Shown here one piece after another: positions 7,186 to 46,069 of a stretch of DNA of 64,000 bases. Source of the DNA: Candidatus Poriferisocius sp. Its GTDB lineage: Bacteria > Actinomycetota > Acidimicrobiia > Acidimicrobiales > Bin134. Where the stretch lies: positions 2,399,380-2,463,379 of the forward strand of contig OZ242341.1 in the NCBI GenBank assembly GCA_965208545.1, in the 5' to 3' direction. The notes beneath the pieces are model-generated. The model did no database searches. It had not been told where the DNA came from and saw nothing but the letters and a program-made list of their open reading frames with translations. How positions within the stretch are numbered: position 1 is the stretch's first letter; each line of letters opens with the position of its first letter. The translations under genes were made by a program, and so were the position numbers.

Positions 7186-7952
7186 TGTCGATCCTTGTCC
7201 GAATGGGTCGCCAGGCCAAGCTCGAACAGCGGGCCTTCTGGCGGAACCCCGACTATGCCTTCTTCACCTTTCTGCTGCCGCTCTTGTTGCTGGCGTTGCT
7301 CGGTTCCGTCAACTCAGGGGACGAGATCGGCGACCGGACCGACATCAACGCCATTGACTTGGTGGTGCCCGGAGTGGTCGCCTTCGCGGTAATGGTTTCC
7401 GCCTACGCCAACCTGGCATCTCGTCTGGCTGTTCTCAGGGCCGATGGGGTCTTGAAGAGGATTAGAACTACGCCGCTCGATCCGCGGGCGTATCTCACCG
7501 CGCAGCTCCTCAGCACCTTGGTCACCACCCTGTTGGCCAGTGCCGCCACCATCCTTCTGGGATTCGTCGCCTTCGACGTCTCACCCCGAGCCGAAGGAGT
7601 GCTCGCTCTCGCCCTCGGGCTCGTTCTCGGCATCATCTGCTTTGCCGCCCTCGGACTCGCCCTCAGTTCGGCCATCTCCCATGCTGATGCCGCCGGTCCC
7701 ATCACCCATGCCACCTACCTCCCCCTGGCATTGGTCTCTGGTGTCTTCGATCCCAGCATCAACATCCCCGGCTGGCTGGAGACCCTGGTTTCCCTCTTCC
7801 CCGTCCAAGCGCTCGTCGAGCTCCTGGTGGCGGCTTACGACCCGACGGCCGACGGTGTGCCCCTCGGGGCCTCATTGGTGCTGGCTATTTGGGGAATAGG
7901 TGCCATTGCCATCGCCATGCGGACTTTCAGCTGGGTCCCGTCGCGGAACTAG
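7182..7952 (+). CDS. ABC-2 type transporter permease
   Basis: Its ATGA start overlaps the stop of the ATPase gene. The 256-aa protein has about six hydrophobic segments. Confidence 0.8.
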   Translation: MMSILVRMGRQAKLEQRAFWRNPDYAFFTFLLPLLLLALLGSVNSGDEIGDRTDINAIDLVVPGVVAFAVMVSAYANLASRLAVLRADGVLKRIRTTPLDPRAYLTAQLLSTLVTTLLASAATILLGFVAFDVSPRAEGVLALALGLVLGIICFAALGLALSSAISHADAAGPITHATYLPLALVSGVFDPSINIPGWLETLVSLFPVQALVELLVAAYDPTADGVPLGASLVLAIWGIGAIAIAMRTFSWVPSRN

Positions 7953-7985
7953 ACCGTCTAGGCCGCACCGCTAGGCTTCGCGGCC

Positions 7986-9017
7986 GTGCGAGCATGGCGT
8001 GTTCATCAATACGGGAGGCCGTCGGAGGCTCTGCGGCTGGATGACATCGAGGAGCCGGAGCCGGAACCGGGCAAGATCCGAGTGGCGCCCACTCGGACGG
8101 TGCTGAACTTCAACGAGATCGACGGCTGCCACGGGCGCTACCGCACCGTGAACCCCGAGCTCCCCTACACCTTGGGCATGGAGGTGTTGGGCACGGTTGA
8201 CGCCGCTGGGGAGGGAGCCGAGGAGTGGCTCGGACGCCGGGTGCACGCCACCGCCGAGAGTGCCTTCGGAGGCTACGCCGACAAGGTGATCGCCCAGCCC
8301 GACATGGTGTTCGACGCCCCCAAATCGCTCGACGACACCGAGGCGGCCGCCTTCTTCTTTCCGTTCCATTTGGCCTGGCTGGGTTTGCACGAGCGGGGTC
8401 AGGTCCAGCCCGGGGAGTGGGTGCTGATCCACGCCGCGGCCGGCGGGGTGGGTTCGGCCGCAGTGCAGCTGGCCGTCGACGCCGGGGCCCGGGTGATCGG
8501 CACTGCGGGCAGCAAGGCCAAGTGCGAGTTCGTGCGCTCCCTGGGGGCCGAAGCCGCGGTGAACTACCGGGACGGGGACTTCGCCACCGAAGTGCGGGAC
8601 ATCACCGGTGGGTCCGGAGTCGACCTGGTGTTCGACGGCGTAGGGGGCGAGGTCACCGAGGCTTCGCTGCGGTGCATGACTCGGGGCGGGCGGCTGATGA
8701 TCATTGGCTTTGCCAGCAAGATCGAGGCCGAGGATGCGGTCGGCCTCCCCCCGAGGCTGCTGTGCTTCTCCCAAGTCTCGATCGGAGGGGTGCTCTTGGC
8801 CTACAGCGGCAACCCAGCGGTCTATGGCGGCATGGCCGGGTTCAACATCAACCCCCGATCGTTGGGCGACCAGATCCACGAGGAGCTCTGCGGCCGGCTA
8901 GCCGAGGGCCGGATCGCCCCGTTGGTGGGCGGAACGGTGGCCTTCGAGGAGCTGCCCATCGCCCTGGAGCAGATGGAGGACCGCCTCACCACAGGGCGCA
9001 TTGTGGTGGTCTGTTGA
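7986..9017 (+). CDS. NADPH:quinone oxidoreductase / MDR zinc-type alcohol dehydrogenase family
   Basis: The sequence MRAWRVHQYGRP...LRLDDIEEPEP...VLIHAAAGGVGSAAVQLA (AxxGxxG) shows the typical MDR layout. Confidence 0.8.
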   Translation: MRAWRVHQYGRPSEALRLDDIEEPEPEPGKIRVAPTRTVLNFNEIDGCHGRYRTVNPELPYTLGMEVLGTVDAAGEGAEEWLGRRVHATAESAFGGYADKVIAQPDMVFDAPKSLDDTEAAAFFFPFHLAWLGLHERGQVQPGEWVLIHAAAGGVGSAAVQLAVDAGARVIGTAGSKAKCEFVRSLGAEAAVNYRDGDFATEVRDITGGSGVDLVFDGVGGEVTEASLRCMTRGGRLMIIGFASKIEAEDAVGLPPRLLCFSQVSIGGVLLAYSGNPAVYGGMAGFNINPRSLGDQIHEELCGRLAEGRIAPLVGGTVAFEELPIALEQMEDRLTTGRIVVVC

Positions 9018-9106
9018 TCCAAGCCCGGTTCTAGTCCTGCCGGTGGTCTGCTGATCGCTGCACCCTGTTGTGGTCGATTGCCAAGCAAACAAGCCAAAAT
9101 AGAGCC

Positions 9107-10285
9107 ATGACCGAGCTCGGATATCTCGCCTTTGACGCCGACAACCACTACTACGAGGCCACCGACGCCTTCACCCGCCACATCGACCCCAAGATGGCCA
9201 AGCGCTGTATGCAGTGGGCCGACATTGGGGGTAAGCAGCGGCTGATCGTCGGTGGGCGGATCAACCGGTTCATCCCCAACCCAACCTTCGACCCGGTGGC
9301 CAAGCCCGGCATCCTCGACGAGTACTTCCGGGCCAAGACCTCGGCCAGCGACATGCGGGAGGCGTTCGGCGAGCTCGACCCCATCAGCCCCGCCTATCGC
9401 AACCGCGACGATCGGCTGGCTCTCATGGACTCCCAGGGGCTGGGCGGCTGCTTCTTGTTCCCCACCTTGGGCGTGGGCATGGAGGCCTGCCTGGAAGACG
9501 ACCTTGGCGCCATCACCGCGGCGTTTGGGGCGTTCAACCGCTGGTTGGACGAAGACTGGGGCTTCTCCTACCAGGAGCGCCTGTTCACCGCCCTGTATCT
9601 GAGCCTGGTTGACGTGGACTGGGCGCTGGGCGAGCTGGAATGGGCCATCGGCCGGGGCCTGCGGCTGGTGAACTTCCGGGCCACCTCGGTGCCCGACGGC
9701 CACGGCAACTACCGCTCTCTGGGCCATCCCGCCCACGACCCGGTGTGGCAGTACCTCAATGACCACGGAGTGTGCGTGGCCTTCCACTCCGGCGACTCCG
9801 GCTATTCGTTCATGAACCACCGCTGGGGGCTGGGCACCGAGACCGAGGCCTTCCGCTACAACCCCCTCCAGAGTCTGCTGTCGCACTCCCCCATCAGCGA
9901 CACCATGGCATCGCTTCTAGCCGACGGCGTGCTGGTGCGGTTCCCCAACCTGCGGGTGGCCACAATCGAGACCGGCTCGTACTGGGTACGGCCCCTCATC
10001 CAGAAGCTGGCCAAGACCTACGGCCAGCACCGCCACGCCTTCGAGGAAGACCCGGTGGAGACCTTCCGCAACCAGGTGTGGGTGTCGCCCTATTACGAGG
10101 ACGACCTGCACGAACTGGCCGGGCTGATCGGCACCGATCACATGCTGTTCGGCTCCGACTTCCCCCACGCCGAAGGACTGGCCAACCCGGTGTCGTTTGT
10201 GGACGACCTCTACGGGTTCAGCGACGACGACATCCGCCGCATCATGTGCGAAAACGGCGCTGGCCTGTCGCGGCTGGCCGTCTAG
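9107..10285 (+). CDS. Amidohydrolase family protein (amidohydrolase_2 / ACMSD-like)
   Basis: ATG 9107 opens MTELGYLAFDADNHYYE (metal-binding D-x-H-like motif), and the protein ends ...MLFGSDFPHAEG. The track ORF starts at an upstream TTG (9068). Confidence 0.75.
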   Translation: MTELGYLAFDADNHYYEATDAFTRHIDPKMAKRCMQWADIGGKQRLIVGGRINRFIPNPTFDPVAKPGILDEYFRAKTSASDMREAFGELDPISPAYRNRDDRLALMDSQGLGGCFLFPTLGVGMEACLEDDLGAITAAFGAFNRWLDEDWGFSYQERLFTALYLSLVDVDWALGELEWAIGRGLRLVNFRATSVPDGHGNYRSLGHPAHDPVWQYLNDHGVCVAFHSGDSGYSFMNHRWGLGTETEAFRYNPLQSLLSHSPISDTMASLLADGVLVRFPNLRVATIETGSYWVRPLIQKLAKTYGQHRHAFEEDPVETFRNQVWVSPYYEDDLHELAGLIGTDHMLFGSDFPHAEGLANPVSFVDDLYGFSDDDIRRIMCENGAGLSRLAV

Positions 10286-26934: not shown

Positions 26935-27055
26935 GTTGGCCGGACGCGCTGCGCCCCTGGGCCGGAGGGGGGCAGCCCAGGGGCGCACTTACCCCGTTGA
27001 GGGATCTTCTACAAGGCTACGGGTACCGTGAGGATTCCGGGTGGATGCTGTAGGT
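26935..27055 (-). repeat. Copy A of a roughly 120-bp duplicated module: last 13 codons of the kinase gene, spacer, and terminator hairpin
   Basis: Compared with 29036-29155, the first 36 nt differ at 1 position, the hairpin arms are identical, and the last 25 nt (aggattccgggtggatgctgtaggt) differ at 1 position. Confidence 0.85.
26950..26987. terminator. Strong GC hairpin between convergent nrdB and the histidine kinase gene
   Basis: tgcgcccctgggc ... gcccaggggcgca forms a 13-bp stem with a 12-nt loop. It is positioned to terminate both convergent transcripts. Confidence 0.55.
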
Positions 27056-28261
27056 GGTGGCATTGAGGGTTACTTCGAAGCGGGCACCGCCGAGCTCGGC
27101 GGAATCGCCCACCTGAATGGCGCCCCGGTGGCGATCGACGATGGCCTTGACGAGGGCGAGGCCAATGCCAATACCGCCGGTTTCTCTGGCTCGGCTGCTA
27201 TCGAGGCGAACGAAGCGTTCAAAGATGCGATCACGGTCTTCAGAGCTGATTCCCGGTCCGTCGTCCTCAACCGCGATCAAGACTTTGGTGTCCTCAGCCG
27301 TCACAGTTACCACCACGCGACCCGCGGCATGGATGACTGCGTTGTCCACCAGATTGATCACTACCTGCTCGATCTGCGAGGCCACGCCATCGGCTCGCGC
27401 CACTGCCGGGCAATTCAATGAGATTGCGGACACTTCCTCTTCGAAACGATCAACCGCGTCACGGCACACCGCGGCAACATCAACCTCAGTGGTGTCGAGT
27501 TCCAAGCGATCCTCATCGAGCCGAGCGAGATCCAGCAGATTGGCAACCAGCAGCTGCATGCGCTGAGCCTCCCCCGACACCGTCTCGGCCAGCTTCTGGA
27601 GCTTGATTGGGTCGGGGCTGACCGACGCAATCTCGGCCGCCGCCACAATCGTCGACAGTGGGGAGCGAAGTTCATGGCTGGCGTCGGCGACGAATGCCCG
27701 CTGTCGCTCCGATGACGATTCCAGCCGGTCGAGCATCTCGTTCATCAGAGCAGCAAGCTTGGCGATCTCGTCTTCGCTAGCCGGCACCGGGACCCGCTCG
27801 TTGAGAGTAGAACCTGTGATTTCCGCGACCTGAGCAGAGATGTCTCGCACAGGACGCAAGGCTCGCCCCACTGTCCACCAAATGGCGAGACCGAGTGCCA
27901 CCACTACCACGGGCACGATGATCAGCAGCGCGTTTGACGCGGCGTCAACCCCGGCTTGCACTTCGCGGACGGAAGCATCGGCCAAGGCGCGCTGCTGAGC
28001 ATCGCCGCTGGATCCGCCGTCGGTTGATCCTTCGCCGCCCTCGCCGGCTTCTCCGCTGCCGCCGTCGGTTGATCCTTCGCCGCTAACGGAATGGGATGCC
28101 GATTCCAACGCAGTGCTGAGCGCGCTTCTGGCGTTGTCCTCCAGATCGCGCTCCACCAGCTGGACTATGAAGTACGACGCCAAGCCCAACACGAGAGCCG
28201 TCAACAAGGTGGCGGCCACCGTGGTCCTCCACCGCACCGACCGCAGCCGGCCAAGCTTCAT
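27017..28261 (-). CDS. Two-component sensor histidine kinase (2 TM segments, HAMP, HisKA, HATPase_c)
   Basis: I trimmed the ORF to ATG 28261 (MKLGRLRSVRW...), which overlaps the regulator stop (ATGA). It has the H-box ADASHELRSPLS, the N box DNAVIHA, and the G boxes DDGPGI and GIGIGLALV. The terminal TTYSIHPESSRYP lies beyond the ATPase domain. Confidence 0.88.
   Translation of the reverse strand: MKLGRLRSVRWRTTVAATLLTALVLGLASYFIVQLVERDLEDNARSALSTALESASHSVSGEGSTDGGSGEAGEGGEGSTDGGSSGDAQQRALADASVREVQAGVDAASNALLIIVPVVVVALGLAIWWTVGRALRPVRDISAQVAEITGSTLNERVPVPASEDEIAKLAALMNEMLDRLESSSERQRAFVADASHELRSPLSTIVAAAEIASVSPDPIKLQKLAETVSGEAQRMQLLVANLLDLARLDEDRLELDTTEVDVAAVCRDAVDRFEEEVSAISLNCPAVARADGVASQIEQVVINLVDNAVIHAAGRVVVTVTAEDTKVLIAVEDDGPGISSEDRDRIFERFVRLDSSRARETGGIGIGLALVKAIVDRHRGAIQVGDSAELGGARFEVTLNATTYSIHPESSRYP
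28014..28083 (-). repeat. 25-nt perfect direct repeat with a 45-nt period, inside the kinase sensor loop
   Basis: ccgccgtcggttgatccttcgccgc occurs at 28014-28038 and 28059-28083. It encodes the duplicated GEGSTDGG. Confidence 0.85.
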
Positions 28262-28929
28262 GTCGCCACGACCCGGTAGCCGACTCCCCGCAGGTTCTTG
28301 ATGGTGCTCACGTCGAACGGTTCGTCGACCTTGCGCCGCAAATAGCGCACGTAAACCTCCACGATCTTGGGATCGACATCGGCGTCGATACCCCACACCC
28401 GATTGAATATCTCCAGCTTGGGCACCGGAGTGTCGCCCGCTCTCATCAGCACTTCGAGAACCTGCAACTCAGTGCGGGTCAGATCGATCACCGTCTCTCC
28501 CCGACGCACGGCCGATGAGGCGACATCGAACACCAGATCGCCCACCTGGAGCACGGCGGGTCGCTCGACCGAGGGACGGCGGGCCAGCGCTCGCAACCGA
28601 GCCAATAGCACGACGAATGAGAACGGCTTGGACAGATAGTCGTCGGCACCGGTGTCGAGGGCCTCGGCTTCGTCCCACTCCCCGTCCTTGGCCGTAAGCA
28701 TCAGAATCGGGGTCCAGATCTCGGCCTCGCGCAGTTTGCGGCAGATCTGGTAGCCGTTGAGCCCGGGCAGCATGATGTCCAACACGATCACGTCATAGCT
28801 GCCCACTTTGGCCCGAAACAGCCCTTCGCGGCCGTCGTGCTCGATGTCGGCAGTCACGCCGTGCTCGCTGAGCCCCTCGCGGATCGTCTCGGCCAGCCGC
28901 TCCTCGTCCTCCACCAGCAGAACGCGCAT
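28258..28929 (-). CDS. OmpR/PhoB-family response regulator
   Basis: It has MRVLLVEDEERL, VLDIMLPGLNG, LTAKD and SKPF, followed by a winged helix ending GVGYRV. Confidence 0.9.
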   Translation of the reverse strand: MRVLLVEDEERLAETIREGLSEHGVTADIEHDGREGLFRAKVGSYDVIVLDIMLPGLNGYQICRKLREAEIWTPILMLTAKDGEWDEAEALDTGADDYLSKPFSFVVLLARLRALARRPSVERPAVLQVGDLVFDVASSAVRRGETVIDLTRTELQVLEVLMRAGDTPVPKLEIFNRVWGIDADVDPKIVEVYVRYLRRKVDEPFDVSTIKNLRGVGYRVVAT

Positions 28930-36372: not shown

Positions 36373-36422
36373 TGCAACAAGCCTCTCACTCCTCAACCGG
36401 GCAGAGGCTCATGGTGCCCCCG

Positions 36423-37199
<777 letters not shown>

Positions 37200-37247
37200 T
37201 TGGGTTTCTCCCCGATTCCTTCAACGGCCACTACTAGCGTCAGGGTG

Positions 37248-39131
37248 ATGCCGGAAATCGCCGCGGTCAATGAGGCCCTGGAAGCGGCTGTCTCGTCGCT
37301 GGAGGGCGGGGGCGAGCGACGGCCTGGACAGCGAGACATGTGCCATGCGGTAGCCGAAGCCATGGAAGCAGAGCGACACCTAGTGGTGGCCGCCGGTACG
37401 GGAACCGGGAAATCACTGGCCTACCTGGTGCCTCTAGTCCTGGGCCAAGGCCCTTCGGTGGTGGCTACCGCCACCAAGACCCTCCAAGACCAGTTGGTCG
37501 ACAAGGACCTCCCCCAACTCGCCGAAGCCTTGGGGCGCCCGGTGCGATTTGCCGTGCTCAAAGGCCGGTCCAACTATCTGTGCCTCCAGCGGTTGGAGGA
37601 GCACCTCCAAGATGACCAGCTGAGCCTGGGAATTGCCGACGGTCCCAAGGCGGAGATCAACCGGCTGGCGGTATGGGCCGGGCAAACCGACACCGGCGAC
37701 CGGGCCGAGCTGGACTTCGAGCCCTCTCCCGCGGCTTGGGATGCGCTCAGCGTCTCGGGCCGCGAGTGCCCAGGGGCGCAACGCTGCCCGTCGGGTCCGG
37801 TGTGCTTCGCCGAAAAGGCCCGCCACCAGACTGATGCCGCCGACATAGTGGTGGTGAACACCCACCTCTACTGCCTGCACTTGTTCAGCGACACCCCGCT
37901 GCTGCCTGAGCACGCCACCGTGGTGATTGACGAGGCCCACGGGTTGGAGGACATCGTGTCCGACACCGCGGGCTTGTCATTGACCGGCGGAAGGTTCGAT
38001 GAACTGGCCCGCAGCATCCGGGCCGTGGTGGCCGAATCGGCCGCCGCCGGCGATCTCGAGGACGCCGGCGTGCTCTTGCGGGAGACCCTGTCCCCTTATA
38101 GGGACAAGCCGCTGCCCTCCCCGCTGACCGACGAGCTCCAGCGAGTAGCCATCGTGGCCCGGGGCCGGGTGGAGCAGGCCCTTGTCGAGCTGCGAGGAGT
38201 GCCCGACGATGCTCCCGGTGATGTCGCCCCCCGCAAACTGCGGGCCATGCTGGCCGGCGGCGCCCTGGCTGAAGACTTGGCCCGGGCGGTGGAGGCCACA
38301 CCTGCTGAGGTGGCCTGGGTATCGGGAACCGAGTCGGCGCCCGCGTGGCGAATCGCCCCTGTCCAGCTCGGCGACCTGTTGACCGAGCACTTGTGGGACC
38401 ACACCACCGCAGTACTGACCAGTGCCACCATTCCCATGAACCTGGGCGAGGTGCTGGGGCTGCATCCCGACGAGCACGACGCCATCGACGTGGGCAGCCC
38501 GTTCGACTACGAGGCCAACGCCCTGCTCTATTGCGCCAAGCACCTGCCCGACCCCCGCAATCCTGGCTACGAGCCATCCCTGCACGAAGAGCTGGCCGCA
38601 TTGATCGAAGCCGCCGGAGGCCGGACCCTTGCGCTGTTCACCAGCTACCGGGCCATGGACCGGGCTGCCGAGGTGCTCCGTGATCAGCTCGATTTCGAGA
38701 TCTACACCCAGCGCGACCTCCCCAAGCCCGAGCTGCTGCGGCGCTTCTCCGCCGAGGTGGAGAGCTGCCTGTTCGCCACCATGAGCTTCTGGCAGGGGGT
38801 AGATGTGCCCGGGGAGTCTCTGTCGCTGGTGACGATCGACCGGCTGCCTTTCCCCCGGCCCGATGATCCCCTGTTGGAGGCCCGGCGGGAGCGTTATGGC
38901 AGCGATGCATTCCGCCTCGTCGACCTGCCCCGGGCCGCCACTCGACTGGCTCAAGGAGCAGGGAGGCTGATCCGACGGGGCGACGACCGGGGTGTGGTGG
39001 CGGTGCTGGATTCCCGGATGGCCACCGCCGGTTACCGCTGGGAGCTGGTGCGTGCCCTGCCCCAGTTCCCCCGCACTGCCGAGCGGGACCGGGCCGTGAC
39101 CCTGCTGCGCTCGATCCGCGACGGGGTCTGA
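37248..39131 (+). CDS. dinG: ATP-dependent DinG/Rad3-family DNA helicase
   Basis: This is the 3' 627 codons of track ORF 36411..39131. It has AGTGTGKSLAYL (Walker A), DEAH (VIDEAHGLED), four Cys in the Fe-S position (C...C..C...C around GRECPGAQRCPSGPVCF), and a C-terminal RLIRRGDDRGVV. Confidence 0.85.
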   Translation: MPEIAAVNEALEAAVSSLEGGGERRPGQRDMCHAVAEAMEAERHLVVAAGTGTGKSLAYLVPLVLGQGPSVVATATKTLQDQLVDKDLPQLAEALGRPVRFAVLKGRSNYLCLQRLEEHLQDDQLSLGIADGPKAEINRLAVWAGQTDTGDRAELDFEPSPAAWDALSVSGRECPGAQRCPSGPVCFAEKARHQTDAADIVVVNTHLYCLHLFSDTPLLPEHATVVIDEAHGLEDIVSDTAGLSLTGGRFDELARSIRAVVAESAAAGDLEDAGVLLRETLSPYRDKPLPSPLTDELQRVAIVARGRVEQALVELRGVPDDAPGDVAPRKLRAMLAGGALAEDLARAVEATPAEVAWVSGTESAPAWRIAPVQLGDLLTEHLWDHTTAVLTSATIPMNLGEVLGLHPDEHDAIDVGSPFDYEANALLYCAKHLPDPRNPGYEPSLHEELAALIEAAGGRTLALFTSYRAMDRAAEVLRDQLDFEIYTQRDLPKPELLRRFSAEVESCLFATMSFWQGVDVPGESLSLVTIDRLPFPRPDDPLLEARRERYGSDAFRLVDLPRAATRLAQGAGRLIRRGDDRGVVAVLDSRMATAGYRWELVRALPQFPRTAERDRAVTLLRSIRDGV

Positions 39132-40147: not shown

Positions 40148-40663
40148 ATGGCCGGGACCAAGCCGGGACCCAATAGTGAACAGGAGCGCACCAAAGTGGT
40201 GGCCACCAATCGCCGCGCCCGTCGGGATTTCGAGATCCTCGACGAGTACGAGGCCGGCCTGGTGCTGGAGGGCTCAGAGGTTAAATCACTGCGGGAGTCC
40301 AAAGTGACGCTGGCCGAGTCGTATGCCCGAATGGCGGAGGGTGAGTTGTGGCTCCAATCCCTGCACATCGCCCCCTACTCCCATGCCAGCGGAGCCGCGG
40401 GCCACGACCCCGACCGGCCCAAGAAGCTGCTGCTGCACCGGGGCGAGCTCAACCGCATCAAGGCCCGCCTCGAGCAAGACCGCCTCACCGTGGTGCCCCT
40501 GTCGCTCTACTTCAAACAGGGACGGGCCAAAGTGCTGATCGGAGTGGCCCGAGGCCGCCGCCGGGCCGACAAGCGCCAAGCCATCGCCGAACAAGACGCC
40601 CGCCGCGAAGCCCGAAACGAGATGGGCCGAGCGGCCAAATCCAGGGGATCGCTGTCAGAGTGA
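40148..40663 (+). CDS. smpB: SsrA-binding protein
   Basis: N.RARRDFEI...EAGLVL.GSEVKSLR and the C-terminal basic tail identify it. It lies immediately upstream of the tmRNA gene. Confidence 0.92.
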   Translation: MAGTKPGPNSEQERTKVVATNRRARRDFEILDEYEAGLVLEGSEVKSLRESKVTLAESYARMAEGELWLQSLHIAPYSHASGAAGHDPDRPKKLLLHRGELNRIKARLEQDRLTVVPLSLYFKQGRAKVLIGVARGRRRADKRQAIAEQDARREARNEMGRAAKSRGSLSE

Positions 40664-41472: not shown

Positions 41473-41970
41473 ATGACGTCTCATTCGAATGATCCCAATT
41501 CGGTCTCACCCGAAAACTTTGGCAAAGACGAGCTGCCAGCAGCCTTTGAAGACTGCGTTGCACTGCTGGCTCAGGCAACATCATTCGCAGTGGCTCTTGA
41601 ATTGGAGCGGAGCGATCTCGATCCCAATGAGTACGCGGTATTGGAGCTCTTCTGCCAGCAAACCGAATGGACCGCAACCCAGATTGTCGAGAAGCTCTCG
41701 CTTGACCCCTCACACATAAGCCGATTGGTAGCCCATCTAGTAGATCGGCGTCTATTGCGCCGGCGGCGGTCGAGAACCGACCGCCGGGTAGTCCATCTTG
41801 CTCTAACCGAATACGGAAGCGAGATTATTGGAGACGCGCGCGACAGAGTCCTCTCCTATCAGGGCAGTCTCCTGGAAGACGTGGACAGCAAGGAACTGGA
41901 TGGCTTTTTTTCCACCGCCTCCAAGGTTTTCCAGAAACACAACGAGATCAAGACCACCTTCCACGAGTAG
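41473..41970 (+). CDS. MarR-family transcriptional regulator (paralog 1)
   Basis: It has a winged HTH: WTATQIVEKLSLDPSHISRLVAHLVDRRLLRRRRSRTDRRVVHLALTEYG. Confidence 0.85.
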   Translation: MTSHSNDPNSVSPENFGKDELPAAFEDCVALLAQATSFAVALELERSDLDPNEYAVLELFCQQTEWTATQIVEKLSLDPSHISRLVAHLVDRRLLRRRRSRTDRRVVHLALTEYGSEIIGDARDRVLSYQGSLLEDVDSKELDGFFSTASKVFQKHNEIKTTFHE

Positions 41971-42082: not shown

Positions 42083-42105
42083 CATTGTCAATAGACAATG
42101 TTGTC
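42083..42105. promoter_or_regulatory. Overlapping palindromes TTGTC-AATA-GACAA-TG-TTGTC (core cattgtc-aata-gacaatg is a perfect 7-4-7) upstream of MarR paralog 2
   Basis: Read directly from the sequence. MarR proteins typically bind palindromes overlapping their own promoters. Confidence 0.45.
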
Positions 42106-42116
42106 ATGAGAGCGCC

Positions 42117-42635
42117 GTGACCCCGGAAACGAAGAGCCAGTATGCGGGCTCAGTTGAACTGCCCATGTTGGGCGACTTGTCGGCTGCTTTTGGCGACTGC
42201 GTTTCGTCATTGGCGAAGGTGATCTCCGCAGCGGTCGAATTCGAGTTGGAACGAGGCAACCTCCGTCCAATCGAGTTCGCCGTGATGCAATTGTTCTGCT
42301 ATCAACCCGAGTGGACTGCAACCCAGCTCGTCGAGAAGACGTCTATCAAAGCAGCGCACATGAGCCGCATAGTCGCCAATCTGGTAAATCGGGGCCTGCT
42401 ATGCCGACGGCGTTCGAGGACCGACCGGCGAGTCATCAATTTGTTGTTGACCGACTACGGAGGCGAGATGATCGCCGAGGCGCACACCAGGATCATCTCT
42501 TACCAAGCAGCCCTCTTGAAAGATGTGAGTGACCAGGAATTGAGCGGCTTTCTTGCCACTGCCCGCAAGGTCATCCAAAACTACGCCGACCTGGCGCCCT
42601 ATCAATCCCAGGTGTCCGGCTTGGGCATGCGGTAG
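42117..42635 (+). CDS. MarR-family transcriptional regulator (paralog 2)
   Basis: It has WTATQLVEKTSIKAAHMSRIVANLVNRGLLCRRRSRTDRRVINLLLTDYG. The start is GTG 42117 or ATG 42165. Confidence 0.85.
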   Translation: MTPETKSQYAGSVELPMLGDLSAAFGDCVSSLAKVISAAVEFELERGNLRPIEFAVMQLFCYQPEWTATQLVEKTSIKAAHMSRIVANLVNRGLLCRRRSRTDRRVINLLLTDYGGEMIAEAHTRIISYQAALLKDVSDQELSGFLATARKVIQNYADLAPYQSQVSGLGMR

Positions 42636-44986
42636 CCGACACGGGGAACGGTGATGATGTAGCGAGGGCTTTTGGCCCGGTCGCCGAGCTTGTGTCTCAG
42701 ATTCTTGACCATTGTTCGCATGGGGCGGAAGTCACCGGTGCTATTCGGACCCCAAATCTTCTTCTGCAATTGATCGTGGGTCAGTGCCACCCCGGGATTG
42801 GCTGACAGCTCCACGAGAAGTCGATATTCGGTAGGGGTCAGGTCGACGATGCGACCGGCTACCGACACCGAGCGTTCGGCGAAATCAATAGCCAGCTCGT
42901 CGAAGATGTAGGACGCCTGCGTGCTCGACCGCTTGCGCAGGGCGGCCTTGACCCGTGCGGTCAACTCAGTGGTAGAGAACGGCTTGACCATGTAGTCGAC
43001 GGCCCCCATCTCAAAGGCCTTGGAAATGAGGTCCTCCTGATCGAATGACGACAGCAGGATTACCGGCGTGCCGCGGGTCAAGTGGATGTCCCGCATCAAC
43101 TCCATTCCGTCTGCGCCCGGAATCATCATGTCCAACAGCACCAGATGGGGATCCGTCTCCTCTATCAGAGCGACCACTTGCTGGGGATCCCCGGTGACGA
43201 CCGGGTCGCATCCCGCGCCCTGAAGCGCGTCCCGAATGTGCTTGAGAGTCCTGGGCTCGTCGTCGACGGCGAGAACACGCGGCTGGTCGCTGTCGATCGA
43301 CTGCGGGAAGCTAACCCCGGTAGGCATCACCCTGCCAGGGCCCTCTTCGGCGGTCGGAATGGTGAATGTGAATCGGCTGCCCAAGCCCGGCCCGTCGCTC
43401 TCGGCCCAAATCCTGCCCCCGTGGGCTTCCACGATGCCCTTGCAGATAGCCAGACCCAAATCGAGGTCTCGACCGTGGCCGTTTCCTGGCGGCCGGGAGT
43501 ATTTGCTGAACAGGTGCGGAATCCACTCGGCGGCAACGCCCCGCCCATCGTCGGTGACGGAGAAGGCGACGTGGACATCTTCGGCAACGGCGTCAATTCG
43601 TATGGGCGACGTATCGTGGGAGCTGCGAGATGCGTTGGACAGGAGATCGCCGAATACCTGGACGAGGCGACGTCGGTCGGCGTACACCAGGGGCAGCCCT
43701 GGGGCAAGGTTGATGCGAACGTTGTCCCGGCCGCCGGCGCTGATGAAAGTGTTGCGAGCCTCATCGACCACTCGAGACACCTCCAATGGCTCCGGATTCA
43801 CCGACAGCGTGCCCGTGTCGATCCGCACGACATCGATCAGGTTGCCGACCAGATCCCGCATGTAGTCGGCTTGCTCGCTGATTATCCGGTGATATTGGGA
43901 AACCTCGGCGGGGTCTAACGACGATTCCGCCTCCAATAGCGTGGCCACTGAGCCCTTGATGCTGGCCAGCGGCATTCGAAGCTCATGGCCGACGACTCCC
44001 AGAAATTCGGCGCGCAGCCGCTCCAGCTCTGATTCCTGGGTCATGTCCTGAAATGTGGCCATGACCGACTTCAACTGCCCGTCGGAGGATCGGACGGGCG
44101 TGGCGTTAACCAAGATGATCACGGTTTGCCCACCGGGACTCTCGATGACGATCTCCTCATCTCGCACCGTCTCCCCAAAGCTCAGGGCCTCAACGATCGA
44201 GGTGCCCTCCTGAGAGATCTTCCGACCATCTGCCCGGCTGAATACCAGGGCGCTGAGGAGGTCCTCCACGGAACCGTCGGGAAGGCGCCTCTCACGGATG
44301 ATCCTGCGAGCCTCACGGCTGACCGACCGAGTTGCCCCGGTCTCGGCGTCAAACACCACCAACCCCAGCGGGGCGGTGTTCACCAAGGTTTCCAGGTCTA
44401 CCCTGGCCTGAAGCTCCTGTTGGTATCGACGGGCGTTAGAGATGACTAGGGCGGCCTGCGAAGCGAACATGACCAACGTCTCCTCGTCATCGGCCGTAAA
44501 TCCCCCATCTCCCTCTGAGGCCGGGAATTCTCTTTGTTTCTCGGCCAAGAAGATGCCGCCAACCCGCTCACCTTGGAAGCGGATCGGTGCCCCCAAGAAG
44601 GAGACCCCCGAACTCGCCGGCACCGGTAGACGCACCTCGGGAATACCCAATTCCTTGATGTGGCTGAGCAGATCCCGCACTCGAAGCGGATTCTCCTTCC
44701 CAAACACTGCCTCTAGGACCTCCCACTTCTCCGGAAGTCCCCACAGATCCTCGTTCTGCTCGGGCGTGAAGCCAGAAGAAAGAGAATCCACAACCTCTGC
44801 GTGGTCATCGACCAGAACGATCACCCCGTAGCGGGCACCCATCAATAGCCGGGCGCTGTCCAACACCCCCTGCAAAACCTCACCGAACTCCAAACTCTCA
44901 TTGATTCGCAAGCTGGCTTGACTCAGCTTGGACAAGCGCTCCCGCAGTCGCCCGACCTCCAATGCCAGCTCATCAACCCGATTCAC
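42602..44986 (-). CDS. Cytoplasmic GAF-PAS sensor histidine kinase fused to a complete OmpR-type response regulator (REC plus winged helix)
   Basis: It is a single 794-aa ORF with these parts in order. GAF-like N-terminus: LRINESLEFGEVLQGVLDSA. H-box: GHELRMPLASIKG. ATPase boxes: LLSNASRSS, TDDGRGV, GLGLAICKGIV. REC: VDDEP, LLDMMIPGADG, VKPF. Winged helix: LTPTEYRLLVEL...VPRVGYRM. Confidence 0.85.
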   Translation of the reverse strand: MNRVDELALEVGRLRERLSKLSQASLRINESLEFGEVLQGVLDSARLLMGARYGVIVLVDDHAEVVDSLSSGFTPEQNEDLWGLPEKWEVLEAVFGKENPLRVRDLLSHIKELGIPEVRLPVPASSGVSFLGAPIRFQGERVGGIFLAEKQREFPASEGDGGFTADDEETLVMFASQAALVISNARRYQQELQARVDLETLVNTAPLGLVVFDAETGATRSVSREARRIIRERRLPDGSVEDLLSALVFSRADGRKISQEGTSIVEALSFGETVRDEEIVIESPGGQTVIILVNATPVRSSDGQLKSVMATFQDMTQESELERLRAEFLGVVGHELRMPLASIKGSVATLLEAESSLDPAEVSQYHRIISEQADYMRDLVGNLIDVVRIDTGTLSVNPEPLEVSRVVDEARNTFISAGGRDNVRINLAPGLPLVYADRRRLVQVFGDLLSNASRSSHDTSPIRIDAVAEDVHVAFSVTDDGRGVAAEWIPHLFSKYSRPPGNGHGRDLDLGLAICKGIVEAHGGRIWAESDGPGLGSRFTFTIPTAEEGPGRVMPTGVSFPQSIDSDQPRVLAVDDEPRTLKHIRDALQGAGCDPVVTGDPQQVVALIEETDPHLVLLDMMIPGADGMELMRDIHLTRGTPVILLSSFDQEDLISKAFEMGAVDYMVKPFSTTELTARVKAALRKRSSTQASYIFDELAIDFAERSVSVAGRIVDLTPTEYRLLVELSANPGVALTHDQLQKKIWGPNSTGDFRPMRTMVKNLRHKLGDRAKSPRYIITVPRVGYRMPKPDTWD

Positions 44987-45122
44987 CGGCCCACCCCTCG
45001 CCCCATGCGATCCGGTTGCTCACACCCTAAAACCCATTCCAATCGCCGAAGCTCATAACTGCCTCACAATGTAGTGGCTTGAGCATCGGCCCACATTTGG
45101 GCCTCCGAGAATCCGGAAACTT

Positions 45123-45605
45123 CTACCGACCGGAGGATTCTTCGAGCTTTTGGAGGTTCTTGTTGATCTTGTCGGTGGTCGTGTGAAAGCCAGCCAGCTC
45201 TCTAGCCCCCACTCCCCGCAAGAGCATCGCCTCGTGAGCCTTCATCTGCTCGGCGATCTCCTCGGACAACTGGGCCCCCCGGTCGGTGAGCGTCAAATAG
45301 ACAACGCGGCGGTCTGTGCGACCCCGCCGTCGACGCAGAATGCGATTGTCAACCATCTTGGCCACGAGCCGGCTCATGCGCGATGGGTCGATATCGAGGT
45401 GGTCCAGAAGCTGGGTTGCGCTCCACTCATCTCGCTTGGCAAAAAGTTGCAATACGGCAAACTCATTCACATGAAGGCCGTGGCGCTTGACTTCGCTTCT
45501 CACACCCAATGCGATCGCGCTATCCAGGCACGCCACGCTTTCTTGCAACGTCATGGGCTGGTCGTCCTGTCCAGATTGAGAGGATTGTTCAGACACTTGA
45601 TGCAC
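45123..45605 (-). CDS. MarR-family transcriptional regulator (paralog 3)
   Basis: It has WSATQLLDHLDIDPSRMSRLVAKMVDNRILRRRRGRTDRRVVYLTLTDRG. The start is GTG 45605; an internal ATG alternative opens MTLQES. Confidence 0.85.
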   Translation of the reverse strand: MHQVSEQSSQSGQDDQPMTLQESVACLDSAIALGVRSEVKRHGLHVNEFAVLQLFAKRDEWSATQLLDHLDIDPSRMSRLVAKMVDNRILRRRRGRTDRRVVYLTLTDRGAQLSEEIAEQMKAHEAMLLRGVGARELAGFHTTTDKINKNLQKLEESSGR

Positions 45606-46069
45606 CTTGCTTGTTGTATTGGGCCTATGACTATGAAATGCGCCACTCAGTAGCTCATCTCATCTGAGCAGAATACAGGATCAAATGCGCTACTTTCGTG
45701 TCTTGTAGACAACTCCGGCCTCAATATTGCCTGATCACCCTCTTCAAATATCTCGACCATTGGCAGAATCAACCGTAATAGTCATGACTAAATCACATAA
45801 AGATCACAATTGGTTTTGGGTGATATTGCGGTTGACATCACCCACGTTCAATCCTTGAATACAACCCTGACAAAATACACACGGCAACTGTAGCAATGAT
45901 TTATTTTTACTACTATTTTTTTATGTCTCGTTATATTTCTGCCACGTTTAGCGAATGTCAACCGGATAACCAGGTCAAACCACCGTTGGAAACCAAGACA
46001 GCACCCGTGGTGATGCTAAGAGCATTGAGAACCAAGGATCGACAGCTCTCAACAGGCCAAGCAGGGATA

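Follow-up and report, generated by a model that had tools for sequence, protein, structure and literature searches.

The window analysed here is a stretch of 64,000 nucleotides (nt) from Candidatus Poriferisocius sp., a member of the Acidimicrobiia (assembly GCA_965208545.1, contig OZ242341.1, positions 2,399,380 to 2,463,379 of the forward strand). Open reading frame (ORF) calling and translation identified on its minus strand a single unbroken ORF of 794 aa with a GTG start, at 42602-44986, which carries a sensor kinase and a response regulator in one polypeptide; we use the label HKRR for this fused gene. Together with three MarR genes it fills a 5-kb block of low GC content (41.1-46.05 kb), the left border of which is marked by the tmRNA gene (Table 1). 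We consider it probable that HKRR is a soluble, dimeric and self-contained two-component system, predicted to regulate itself through the direct repeat TGTGA-N6-TGTGA. What was computed directly comprises the order of the domains, the conservation of the catalytic residues, the lack of any membrane-spanning stretch, how large and widespread the family is, and the statistical link between the repeat and family genes.

Table 1. Coordinates of HKRR, its domains and the neighbouring features in the window.
Feature	Position	Strand	Evidence or remark
HKRR fused gene, 794 aa	42602..44986	-	ORF, Pfam domains, colinear full-length homologs
GAF domain, residues 33-182	44441..44890	-	Pfam GAF, 39 bits, above cut-off
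PAS-like domain, residues 199-317	44036..44392	-	several PAS models at 20-23 bits, each just under cut-off
HisKA (DHp), residues 325-392	43811..44014	-	Pfam PF00512, 49 bits
HATPase_c, residues 437-546	43349..43678	-	Pfam PF02518, 80 bits
Kinase-receiver tether, ~24 residues, 547-570	43277..43348	-	sequence and AlphaFold 2 (AF2) model
Receiver, residues 571-680	42947..43276	-	Pfam Response_reg PF00072, 85 bits
OmpR/PhoB-type winged helix, residues 713-787	42626..42850	-	Pfam Trans_reg_C PF00486, 69 bits
Terminator-like hairpin just after the HKRR stop	42583..42597	-	consensus scan, pattern match only
Candidate operator O2, TGTGAGgcagtTATGA, 11-bp-phased direct repeat	45053..45068	-	window scan at <=1 mismatch; conserved in the spacer alignment of relatives
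MarR3, directly upstream of HKRR	45123..45605	-	Pfam MarR, MarR_2, SarA/Rot
Palindrome TAGTCATGACTA, following O1 and before MarR3	45779-45790
Candidate operator O1, TGTGATctttaTGTGAT, exact 11-bp-phased direct repeat upstream of MarR3	45792..45808	-	conserved footprint, family enrichment
SmpB	40148-40663		adjoins the tmRNA gene
tmRNA gene, tag peptide GNDRELLAA	40704..41092	+	ARAGORN; Rfam RF00023, 64 bits
MarR1	41473..41970	+	Pfam
MarR2	42117..42635	+	Pfam, synteny; convergent with HKRR, 34-nt overlap with its 3′ end

Architecture and catalytic residues of HKRR

A preliminary description of this DNA had proposed an uninterrupted 794-aa ORF without a transmembrane segment, in which GAF, PAS, HisKA, HATPase, REC and OmpR winged-helix domains follow one another, and our results agree. 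The strand, which it left unstated, is minus; the plus-strand reading of the same interval is riddled with stop codons and was rejected. In the Pfam scan that it had called for, GAF, HisKA, HATPase_c, Response_reg and Trans_reg_C were matched in the proposed order, with the PAS segment sub-threshold. The highest Kyte-Doolittle mean over 19 residues is 1.4, so that no membrane segment is predicted. The motifs quoted in that description were all found, namely GHELRMPLASIKG (His334), VDDEP (Asp575 and Asp576), LLDMMIPG (Asp619), VKPF (Lys668) and VPRVGYRM. In the AF2 model a long N-terminal helix (residues 2-28) precedes the GAF domain, and the PAS region, which is strongly conserved across phyla (motifs RRADGREIS, GETVRAEE and NATPI), appears as a domain of mixed helix and strand.

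The phospho-accepting His334 lies within the motif GHELRMPL and is encoded at 43985-43987 of the minus strand. The N box of the HATPase_c domain is represented by Asn451, the G1 box by Asp479, Gly481 and Gly483, and the G2 box by Gly511. The key residues of the receiver are Asp575, Asp576, the phospho-acceptor Asp619 (encoded at 43130-43132), Ser646, Tyr665 and Lys668. Counts for these columns were taken from an alignment of 48 family members. His334 is kept in 47 of the 48, and all five residues of the ATPase boxes, as well as Asp575, Asp576, Asp619, Tyr665 and Lys668, are present in every member; position 646 is Ser in 47 members and Thr in one. At position 509, within the HATPase_c domain, the window clade has Asp, and 44 of the 48 members have Gly. 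Judged from this alignment, the phosphotransfer residues of HKRR are intact and the catalytic columns are under selection.

The tether between kinase and receiver is variable in sequence across the family, and its AF2 pLDDT (predicted local distance difference test) is below 50 for residues 548-566. Because the linker is both variable and predicted to be disordered, a flexible tether that would let the receiver reach the DHp histidine fits these data. For the monomer as a whole the pLDDT is 73 and the predicted template-modelling score (pTM) 0.33. The individual domain folds are thereby supported but their packing is not, and with such scores the model is unusable for interdomain geometry. A Foldseek search with the model returned WalK, VicK, phytochrome-type and LOV kinases on the one hand and MtrA, PrrA and KdpE on the other, with nothing beyond kinases and OmpR regulators; a sequence search of the PDB with the whole protein likewise gave kinase and regulator matches only.

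The REC and winged helix-turn-helix (wHTH) portion matches, among PDB sequences, MtrA (2gwr), KdpE and BaeR; residues 565-791 align with the full length of MtrA at E 6e-37. Like the OmpR/PhoB regulators (MtrA, KdpE, BaeR, PrrA, PhoB), HKRR has all of the receiver active-site residues, and its predicted target is a direct repeat phased at 11 bp, a geometry typical of these regulators. Unlike them, its regulator module is covalently joined to the kinase. NCBIfam yielded only partial, sub-threshold matches to named kinases and OmpR regulators (MtrA, PhoB, KdpE, PhoR, WalK, TorS), and the equivalog cut-offs of all named regulators were missed (MtrA 152 bits, cut-off 300; PhoB 142, cut-off 296); HKRR is thus no orthologue of any named system. 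Elsewhere in the window, at 27017-28929 of the minus strand, a separate canonical kinase (459-aa ORF) and OmpR-type regulator (223-aa ORF) are encoded. As this pair is only 29-30% identical to HKRR, the genome possesses both the split and the fused design.

Hybrid kinases such as TorS, ArcB and ShkA resemble HKRR in having a kinase core followed by a receiver with intact phospho-acceptor residues, and HKRR gave partial matches to the TorS and NahK/ErcS models. Those proteins end at a receiver or Hpt domain and relay phosphate onward, whereas HKRR ends in a DNA-binding domain. No Pfam match to an Hpt domain was found in the protein, from which we see no sign of a multistep relay and conclude that HKRR is not a phosphorelay hybrid kinase; within the low-GC block, the ORFs around it are the three MarR genes only, with no Hpt protein among them.

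The comparison drawn in the preliminary description was with the hybrid two-component systems (HTCS) of Bacteroides, and it is an appropriate one, as kinase, receiver and DNA-binding domain are fused in both. As in BT4124 or BT4663, a sensor, HisKA, HATPase_c, a receiver and a DNA-binding domain make up a single HKRR polypeptide, and the HTCS show that such a fusion can be a working design (PMC11253607). The HTCS sit in the membrane, sense glycans in the periplasm and have an AraC-type output, whereas HKRR is soluble, with a cytoplasmic GAF-PAS sensor and an OmpR/PhoB winged helix; its output matches Trans_reg_C, and no Pfam match to the AraC-type HTH_18 domain was found.

A widespread family with a DevS-like sensor domain

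The preliminary description had regarded a soluble kinase fused to an OmpR-type output as uncommon, and in sequence space this did not hold. A search of 5.8 billion proteins gave 6,620 matches at E <= 1e-10 among 8,000 candidates. In each of the best 120 clusters (90% identity) the protein measures 779-835 residues and aligns with 97-100% of the query at 55-88% identity, and its Pfam domains, Trans_reg_C among them, are those of HKRR. A HMMER scan of 1.84 billion representatives at 50% identity yielded at least 100 colinear full-length matches, down to approximately 35% identity. When the best 150 of these representatives were scored by phmmer with the domain segments of the window protein itself, 76 showed the same six-domain order and approximately 125 had kinase, receiver and wHTH fused; some of these fusions are longer (up to 1,327 residues) and have different N-terminal sensors.

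In JGI metagenomes, 581 of 600 pattern matches encode relatives, among the matches listed. Among 80 retained loci, eight contain a full-length gene and many a HisKA-to-wHTH fusion at 33-39% identity. Reference genomes hold full-length relatives in Acidimicrobiia at 85-86% identity and, at 48-54% identity, in metagenome-assembled genomes (MAGs) labelled Dehalococcoidia and Caldilineaceae; a truncated copy lies at a contig end in a gammaproteobacterial MAG. Several Chloroflexota loci (L010, L015, L016, L017, L027, L028 and L033) have two to three copies within a few kb, 45-54% identical to the window protein, and chromosome OZ220675.1 has at least four copies over L017 and L021. The source records annotate family members as 'ATP-binding protein' or 'response regulator'; one source names a member 'DNA-binding response OmpR family regulator/signal transduction histidine kinase'.

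To judge by names and labels, many of the carriers (L005-L033, P0103, L002 and L124) may be sponge-associated. The hints are the genus name Candidatus Poriferisodalis, MAG bins named for example RHO1, RHO2, SB0662 and CO36405, and samples labelled for example KELL22-1 and NGUY21-1.

Kinase and regulator genes are often adjacent, and one indel could fuse them, so that the single ORF might in principle result from a sequencing or assembly error that merged two genes; the preliminary description had likewise considered a frameshift or stop that splits the ORF. More than 120 clusters from independent assemblies are nevertheless colinear with HKRR over 97-100% of its length with the same domains in the same order, the six-domain order recurs among the 50%-identity representatives, and all loci from NCBI, ENA, JGI and Logan have one ORF. 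The fusion is therefore no frameshift or assembly artefact, and that explanation is effectively refuted. HKRR belongs to an unnamed, widespread family found across several phyla, the one-polypeptide architecture itself being neither rare nor conceptually new. According to the summary in PMC3018481 of the work of Cock & Whitworth, whether a minimal two-component pair is fused correlates with whether the system has a transmembrane sensor and a DNA-binding output.

The sensor could be placed only with a profile of the N-terminal region of the family, the whole-protein PDB search having shown no sensor match. This profile covers the first 322 residues at 18 loci across phyla; it is highly conserved (mean column identity 63%) and contains an invariant DEETLV motif. 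Against the PDB its best match is the GAF-A heme domain of Mycobacterium tuberculosis DevS/DosS (2y79, 2w3d, 4ynr; E 8e-33), followed by GAF-A of DosT (2vzw; E 7e-27) and, at approximately 1e-11, the GAF domains of cGMP phosphodiesterases (PDE5, 2e-11). By BLASTP, the N-terminus of the window protein is 29% identical to DevS (E 7e-16).

In DevS the phosphoacceptor domain is of the HisKA_3 type, and its partner DevR, of the NarL type, is a separate protein. HKRR resembles DevS (DosS) and DosT in its homologous N-terminal GAF domain and in being a soluble GAF sensor kinase of the Actinomycetota. It differs from them in the heme site, in having PAS rather than GAF-B as its second sensor domain, and in its HisKA (PF00512) kinase with a fused OmpR-type output. 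The proximal heme ligand of DevS, His149 (His147 in DosT), aligns with Arg119 of HKRR. Among family members, only four of 48 and one of 18 have His in this column, the ligand being absent in approximately 90%; no other His lies within three residues of the position in the family alignment, and no His or Cys is conserved in the family GAF domain. The position of the distal Tyr171, a residue that serves ligand discrimination in DevS/DosT, is Phe146 in HKRR; in the family, 33 of the 48 members have Tyr there and 12 have Phe. Both residues of the DevS heme site are kept in one dehalococcoidial member (L020), which may still bind heme.

These data bear on whether HKRR is simply a DevS/DosT-type heme sensor of O2, NO, CO or redox state onto which an OmpR output has been fused. 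The profile does fit the DevS/DosT heme domains far better than those of PDE5 or any other GAF domain of known structure, most members retain the distal Tyr, and L020 has the complete site. Set against this are Arg119, the rarity of the ligand in the family, Phe146 in the window protein itself, the lack of any conserved GAF His or Cys, and a kinase type and output unlike those of DevS-DevR. The His-ligated heme spectrum is moreover lost in the H149A variant of DevS, and the corresponding H150A variant of M. smegmatis DosS does not bind heme stably (PMC4082495). We regard a heme-based sensor of this kind as very unlikely. Most probably, to go by the alignments, the sensor of HKRR has a DevS-like GAF fold that does not bind heme in the manner of DevS. 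As the ligand is missing, its signal is probably not a heme-bound gas as in DevS, and homology alone does not justify annotating family members as gas or redox sensors.

The candidate operator and the proposed mechanism

The candidate operator O1 was found by intergenic footprinting across five related loci. No other exact match to the repeat occurs in the window, and six of the seven close-relative loci fetched, some of which are copies of one contig, have it without a mismatch. At up to one mismatch, two of the five sites in the window, O1 and O2, lie on the sense strand in the regulatory DNA of MarR3 and HKRR. O2 is situated 67 nt upstream of the HKRR start codon, within the 136-nt spacer between the two genes. 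When two mismatches are allowed, the pattern is not enriched in the window taken alone (2 found, 2.8 expected); the operator signal hence comes from conservation and from the cross-family loci.

Similar direct pairs are found upstream of distant family members. The discovery set consisted of 25 non-redundant upstream regions of 250 nt, searched for direct repeats at 10-12 bp with at most one mismatch in total. TGTGA ranked first among the 1,024 pentamers, with a repeat in seven of the 25 regions; the mean of dinucleotide shuffles is 0.73, and none of 1,000 shuffles reached seven. Family-wise, the maximum over all pentamers reached seven in 13 of 1,000 shuffles. At up to two mismatches there were 16 sites on the sense strand, three on the antisense strand and none in the coding control. 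The hold-out set comprised 13 loci, fetched once the pattern was fixed. Six of them were positive, three exactly so (L121, L123 and L124), where shuffled sequences gave 0.28 on average and never six in 5,000 trials; by comparison, seven of 544 other 250-nt segments of the same loci were positive (binomial P 7e-9). All 13 sites with at most one mismatch lie 54-203 nt upstream on the sense strand.

Tandem direct repeats one helical turn apart are the targets of OmpR/PhoB dimers, and the sites of CRP-type and MarR-type proteins are inverted repeats. The simplest reading of the repeats would be autoregulation of HKRR through its own winged helix at the candidate operators. Since they lie upstream of both MarR3 (O1) and HKRR (O2), HKRR is predicted to regulate the MarR3-HKRR unit. 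MarR3, which starts with GTG at 45605 or ATG at 45557, is probably co-transcribed with HKRR; a consensus scan found no terminator-like site between the two genes.

From these elements we infer a phosphotransfer within the protein or its dimer, binding of the repeats by HKRR, a sign of regulation by which the protein would probably activate its own gene, and the nature of the signal. A cytoplasmic signal would act on the module formed by the N-terminal helix, GAF and PAS, and would set the balance between kinase and phosphatase by altering the autophosphorylation of His334, on the HisKA helices, by HATPase_c. The phosphoryl group would then pass from His334 to Asp619 of the receiver, held by its flexible linker. 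Pairing of phosphorylated receivers would place two OmpR-type winged helices on TGTGA-N6-TGTGA at the promoter or promoters of HKRR itself and presumably at other sites elsewhere. The three MarR paralogs probably add ligand-responsive repression via nearby palindromes, such as the perfect inverted repeat CATTGTC-aata-GACAATG at 42083-42100, just upstream of MarR2.

Several points weigh against this mechanism. Only 13 of the 38 upstream regions tested have the repeat at up to one mismatch, so that in many paralogs the operator may be degenerate, differently spaced or absent. One subgroup of Dehalococcoidia (L015, L016, L017, L021, L027, L028 and L033) has TTGTAA-N6-TTGTAA with a 12-bp spacing, which suggests that operator and recognition helix co-diverged between paralog lineages. 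In the member P0039 (792 aa), Asn replaces the phospho-accepting His (GNELRSPL) and all receiver residues are kept; it may be a kinase-dead paralog dependent on another kinase. The AF2 monomer model, a structure prediction having been proposed in the preliminary description, carries at its pTM no information on domain packing or on whether the receiver reaches the H-box in cis or only in a dimer. A constitutive kinase dimer would also hold both DNA-binding domains together at all times. Finally, that description had asked whether the fusion is widespread and already characterised; widespread it is, and a literature search found no paper characterising any member of a kinase-receiver-OmpR fusion family.

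To these must be added that some other factor might occupy the repeat. As a half-site, TGTGA is also classical for CRP and GlxR-type proteins, O1 abuts the palindrome TAGTCATGACTA, which a MarR protein could bind, and MarR genes flank HKRR. The repeats might thus be real regulatory sites of a CRP/FNR/GlxR-type protein or of an adjacent MarR, with HKRR regulating other targets. We think this rather unlikely. The half-sites are direct, not inverted, they are phased at 11 bp, and they are biased to the sense strand, not only in the discovery set (16 sites against three) but also in the hold-out set (six against one). Such a geometry is that of tandem OmpR/PhoB binding and differs from that of CRP or MarR proteins, the dimers of which are symmetric. 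The repeat also accompanies the fused gene across phyla at loci that have no MarR neighbour.

An off-state must exist, as the kinase dimer is permanent. MtrA and PrrA adopt closed forms, and by analogy a closed form might keep HKRR inactive. The other candidate is an inhibitory contact between REC and the DNA-binding domain, like that of the Bacteroides HTCS, in which a constitutive kinase dimer likewise tethers two DNA-binding domains and an off-state is required (PMC11253607).

The preliminary description had also held the pathway to be insulated from cross-talk, and for HKRR this is predicted as a reasonable inference. Conceivably, the kinase mainly serves other regulators, or the receiver is fed or drained mainly by other kinases; the fused domains would then act as a node where pathways branch or as a sink for phosphate. 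Branched networks include many hybrid kinases (PMC8175716); genomes with several paralogs have very similar HisKA and REC domains, making heterodimers or cross-phosphorylation possible, and the window itself contains the canonical kinase and OmpR regulator pair. Yet no orphan receiver, Hpt or kinase gene is conserved beside family members, the neighbours being clade-specific (MarR, PEP carboxylase, others), the fusion from kinase to wHTH remains colinear down to approximately 35% identity, and tethering would give a very high local concentration of the receiver. A branched role therefore seems quite improbable to us, and a self-contained pathway is preferred.

Genomic setting and significance

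The GC content of the low-GC block is 0.565 and that of HKRR 0.610, compared with 0.652 for the rest of the window. The three MarR paralogs are mutually 38-57% identical and have a common wing motif near RRRSRTDRRV. A scan of 41-46.2 kb for sigma-70 consensus promoters found nothing, the consensus being uninformative for this organism. At least four related assemblies share the block of three MarR genes and HKRR in synteny, at 85-88% identity. In one relative (L004), four extra genes (amidohydrolase, CoA-transferase, thiolase and ChsH2-like) separate it from the tmRNA gene, so that the site following the tmRNA gene is variable. In other Acidimicrobiia the family gene is found after a phosphoenolpyruvate (PEP) carboxylase gene or elsewhere. 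MarR neighbours were seen only in the window clade, in L020 and, approximately 2 kb away, in L042, and MarR linkage was accordingly rejected as a family-wide feature. No conserved partner genes were found, the neighbours differing among clades.

In a neighbour-joining tree the Acidimicrobiia and Caldilineaceae are separate and the Dehalococcoidia form several deep paralog lineages, with L014 as a possible cross-class exception. The preliminary description had spoken of a horizontally mobile regulator, which is weakly supported: the low GC content and the position next to the tmRNA gene are as such a history would have it, and the lack of an integrase or att repeat, the syntenic block and the mostly lineage-wise tree are not. 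The block could be a recently acquired islet inserted at the tmRNA gene. It begins right after that gene at a variable site and departs from the window in GC content; full-length relatives at 48-54% identity occur in other phyla, in some dehalococcoidial loci the GC content of the family gene is 4-6 points off its flanks, and one copy, in L034, is disrupted by a serine-recombinase element. However, no integrase-like or transposase ORF was found in 41.1-46.1 kb, and a search of 40.6-47 kb for a direct repeat of the tmRNA 3′ end (att) gave only short chance repeats. The block is also syntenic in its relatives, the tree follows lineage apart from L014, and low GC content is frequent in regulator genes and AT-rich promoters. 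Recent acquisition is on these grounds improbable. The picture is rather one of old sharing between phyla followed by lineage-specific expansion, not of a recently mobile island.

Some features of individual loci were noted in passing. The insertion in L034 (Dehalococcoidia; 7535-9817) is 2.3 kb in length and splits the family gene exactly between residues 521 and 522. Within it lie the gene of a serine recombinase, recognised by a Resolvase N-terminal domain, and a 550-aa ORF without a Pfam match; no Rfam family was detected in it. In L124 a divergent Cas9-like gene (Cas9_a, HNH_4, RuvC_III; 1-924) lies 576 nt from the start of the family member, probably by coincidence. In the window, the 906-aa ORF at 36411-39131 seems over-extended at its 5′ end, its DinG-like homolog in L001 (DEAD, Helicase_C_2) being 627 aa in length; an ORF resembling undecaprenyl pyrophosphate (UPP) synthase (36423-37199; Prenyltransf in L001) overlaps it on the other strand.

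To our knowledge, work on one-polypeptide two-component systems has been confined almost entirely to the HTCS of Bacteroides, which are membrane-bound and have an AraC-type output. The present family is soluble, approximately 790 residues in length and equipped with an OmpR-type output, an intact predicted chemistry and a predicted operator. With a single protein and a single DNA probe, the whole path from signal to DNA could be reconstituted in vitro. Such a system would make two questions directly testable, whether His-to-Asp transfer proceeds in cis or in trans and how the DNA-binding domain stays off in a permanent dimer. If the proposed mechanism is true, HKRR would be a convenient soluble protein in which to study by what means a fused kinase dimer holds its OmpR-type DNA-binding domain in check.

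A wider reading can be offered only tentatively, and we rather doubt it: that the family consists of autoregulated two-component systems in one polypeptide, spread across phyla and often multiplied into paralogs, that it re-uses a DevS-type GAF domain without heme for a common cytoplasmic cue, each paralog having its own TGTGA-type operator, and that it could be a regulatory module shared, and in part laterally exchanged, within a sponge-associated community of Acidimicrobiia and Chloroflexota. The main value of the finding lies in the predicted operator, in the heme-less DevS-type sensor and in a soluble model of fused two-component signalling; the operator would provide a concrete handle for regulon prediction in the uncultured Acidimicrobiia and Chloroflexota.

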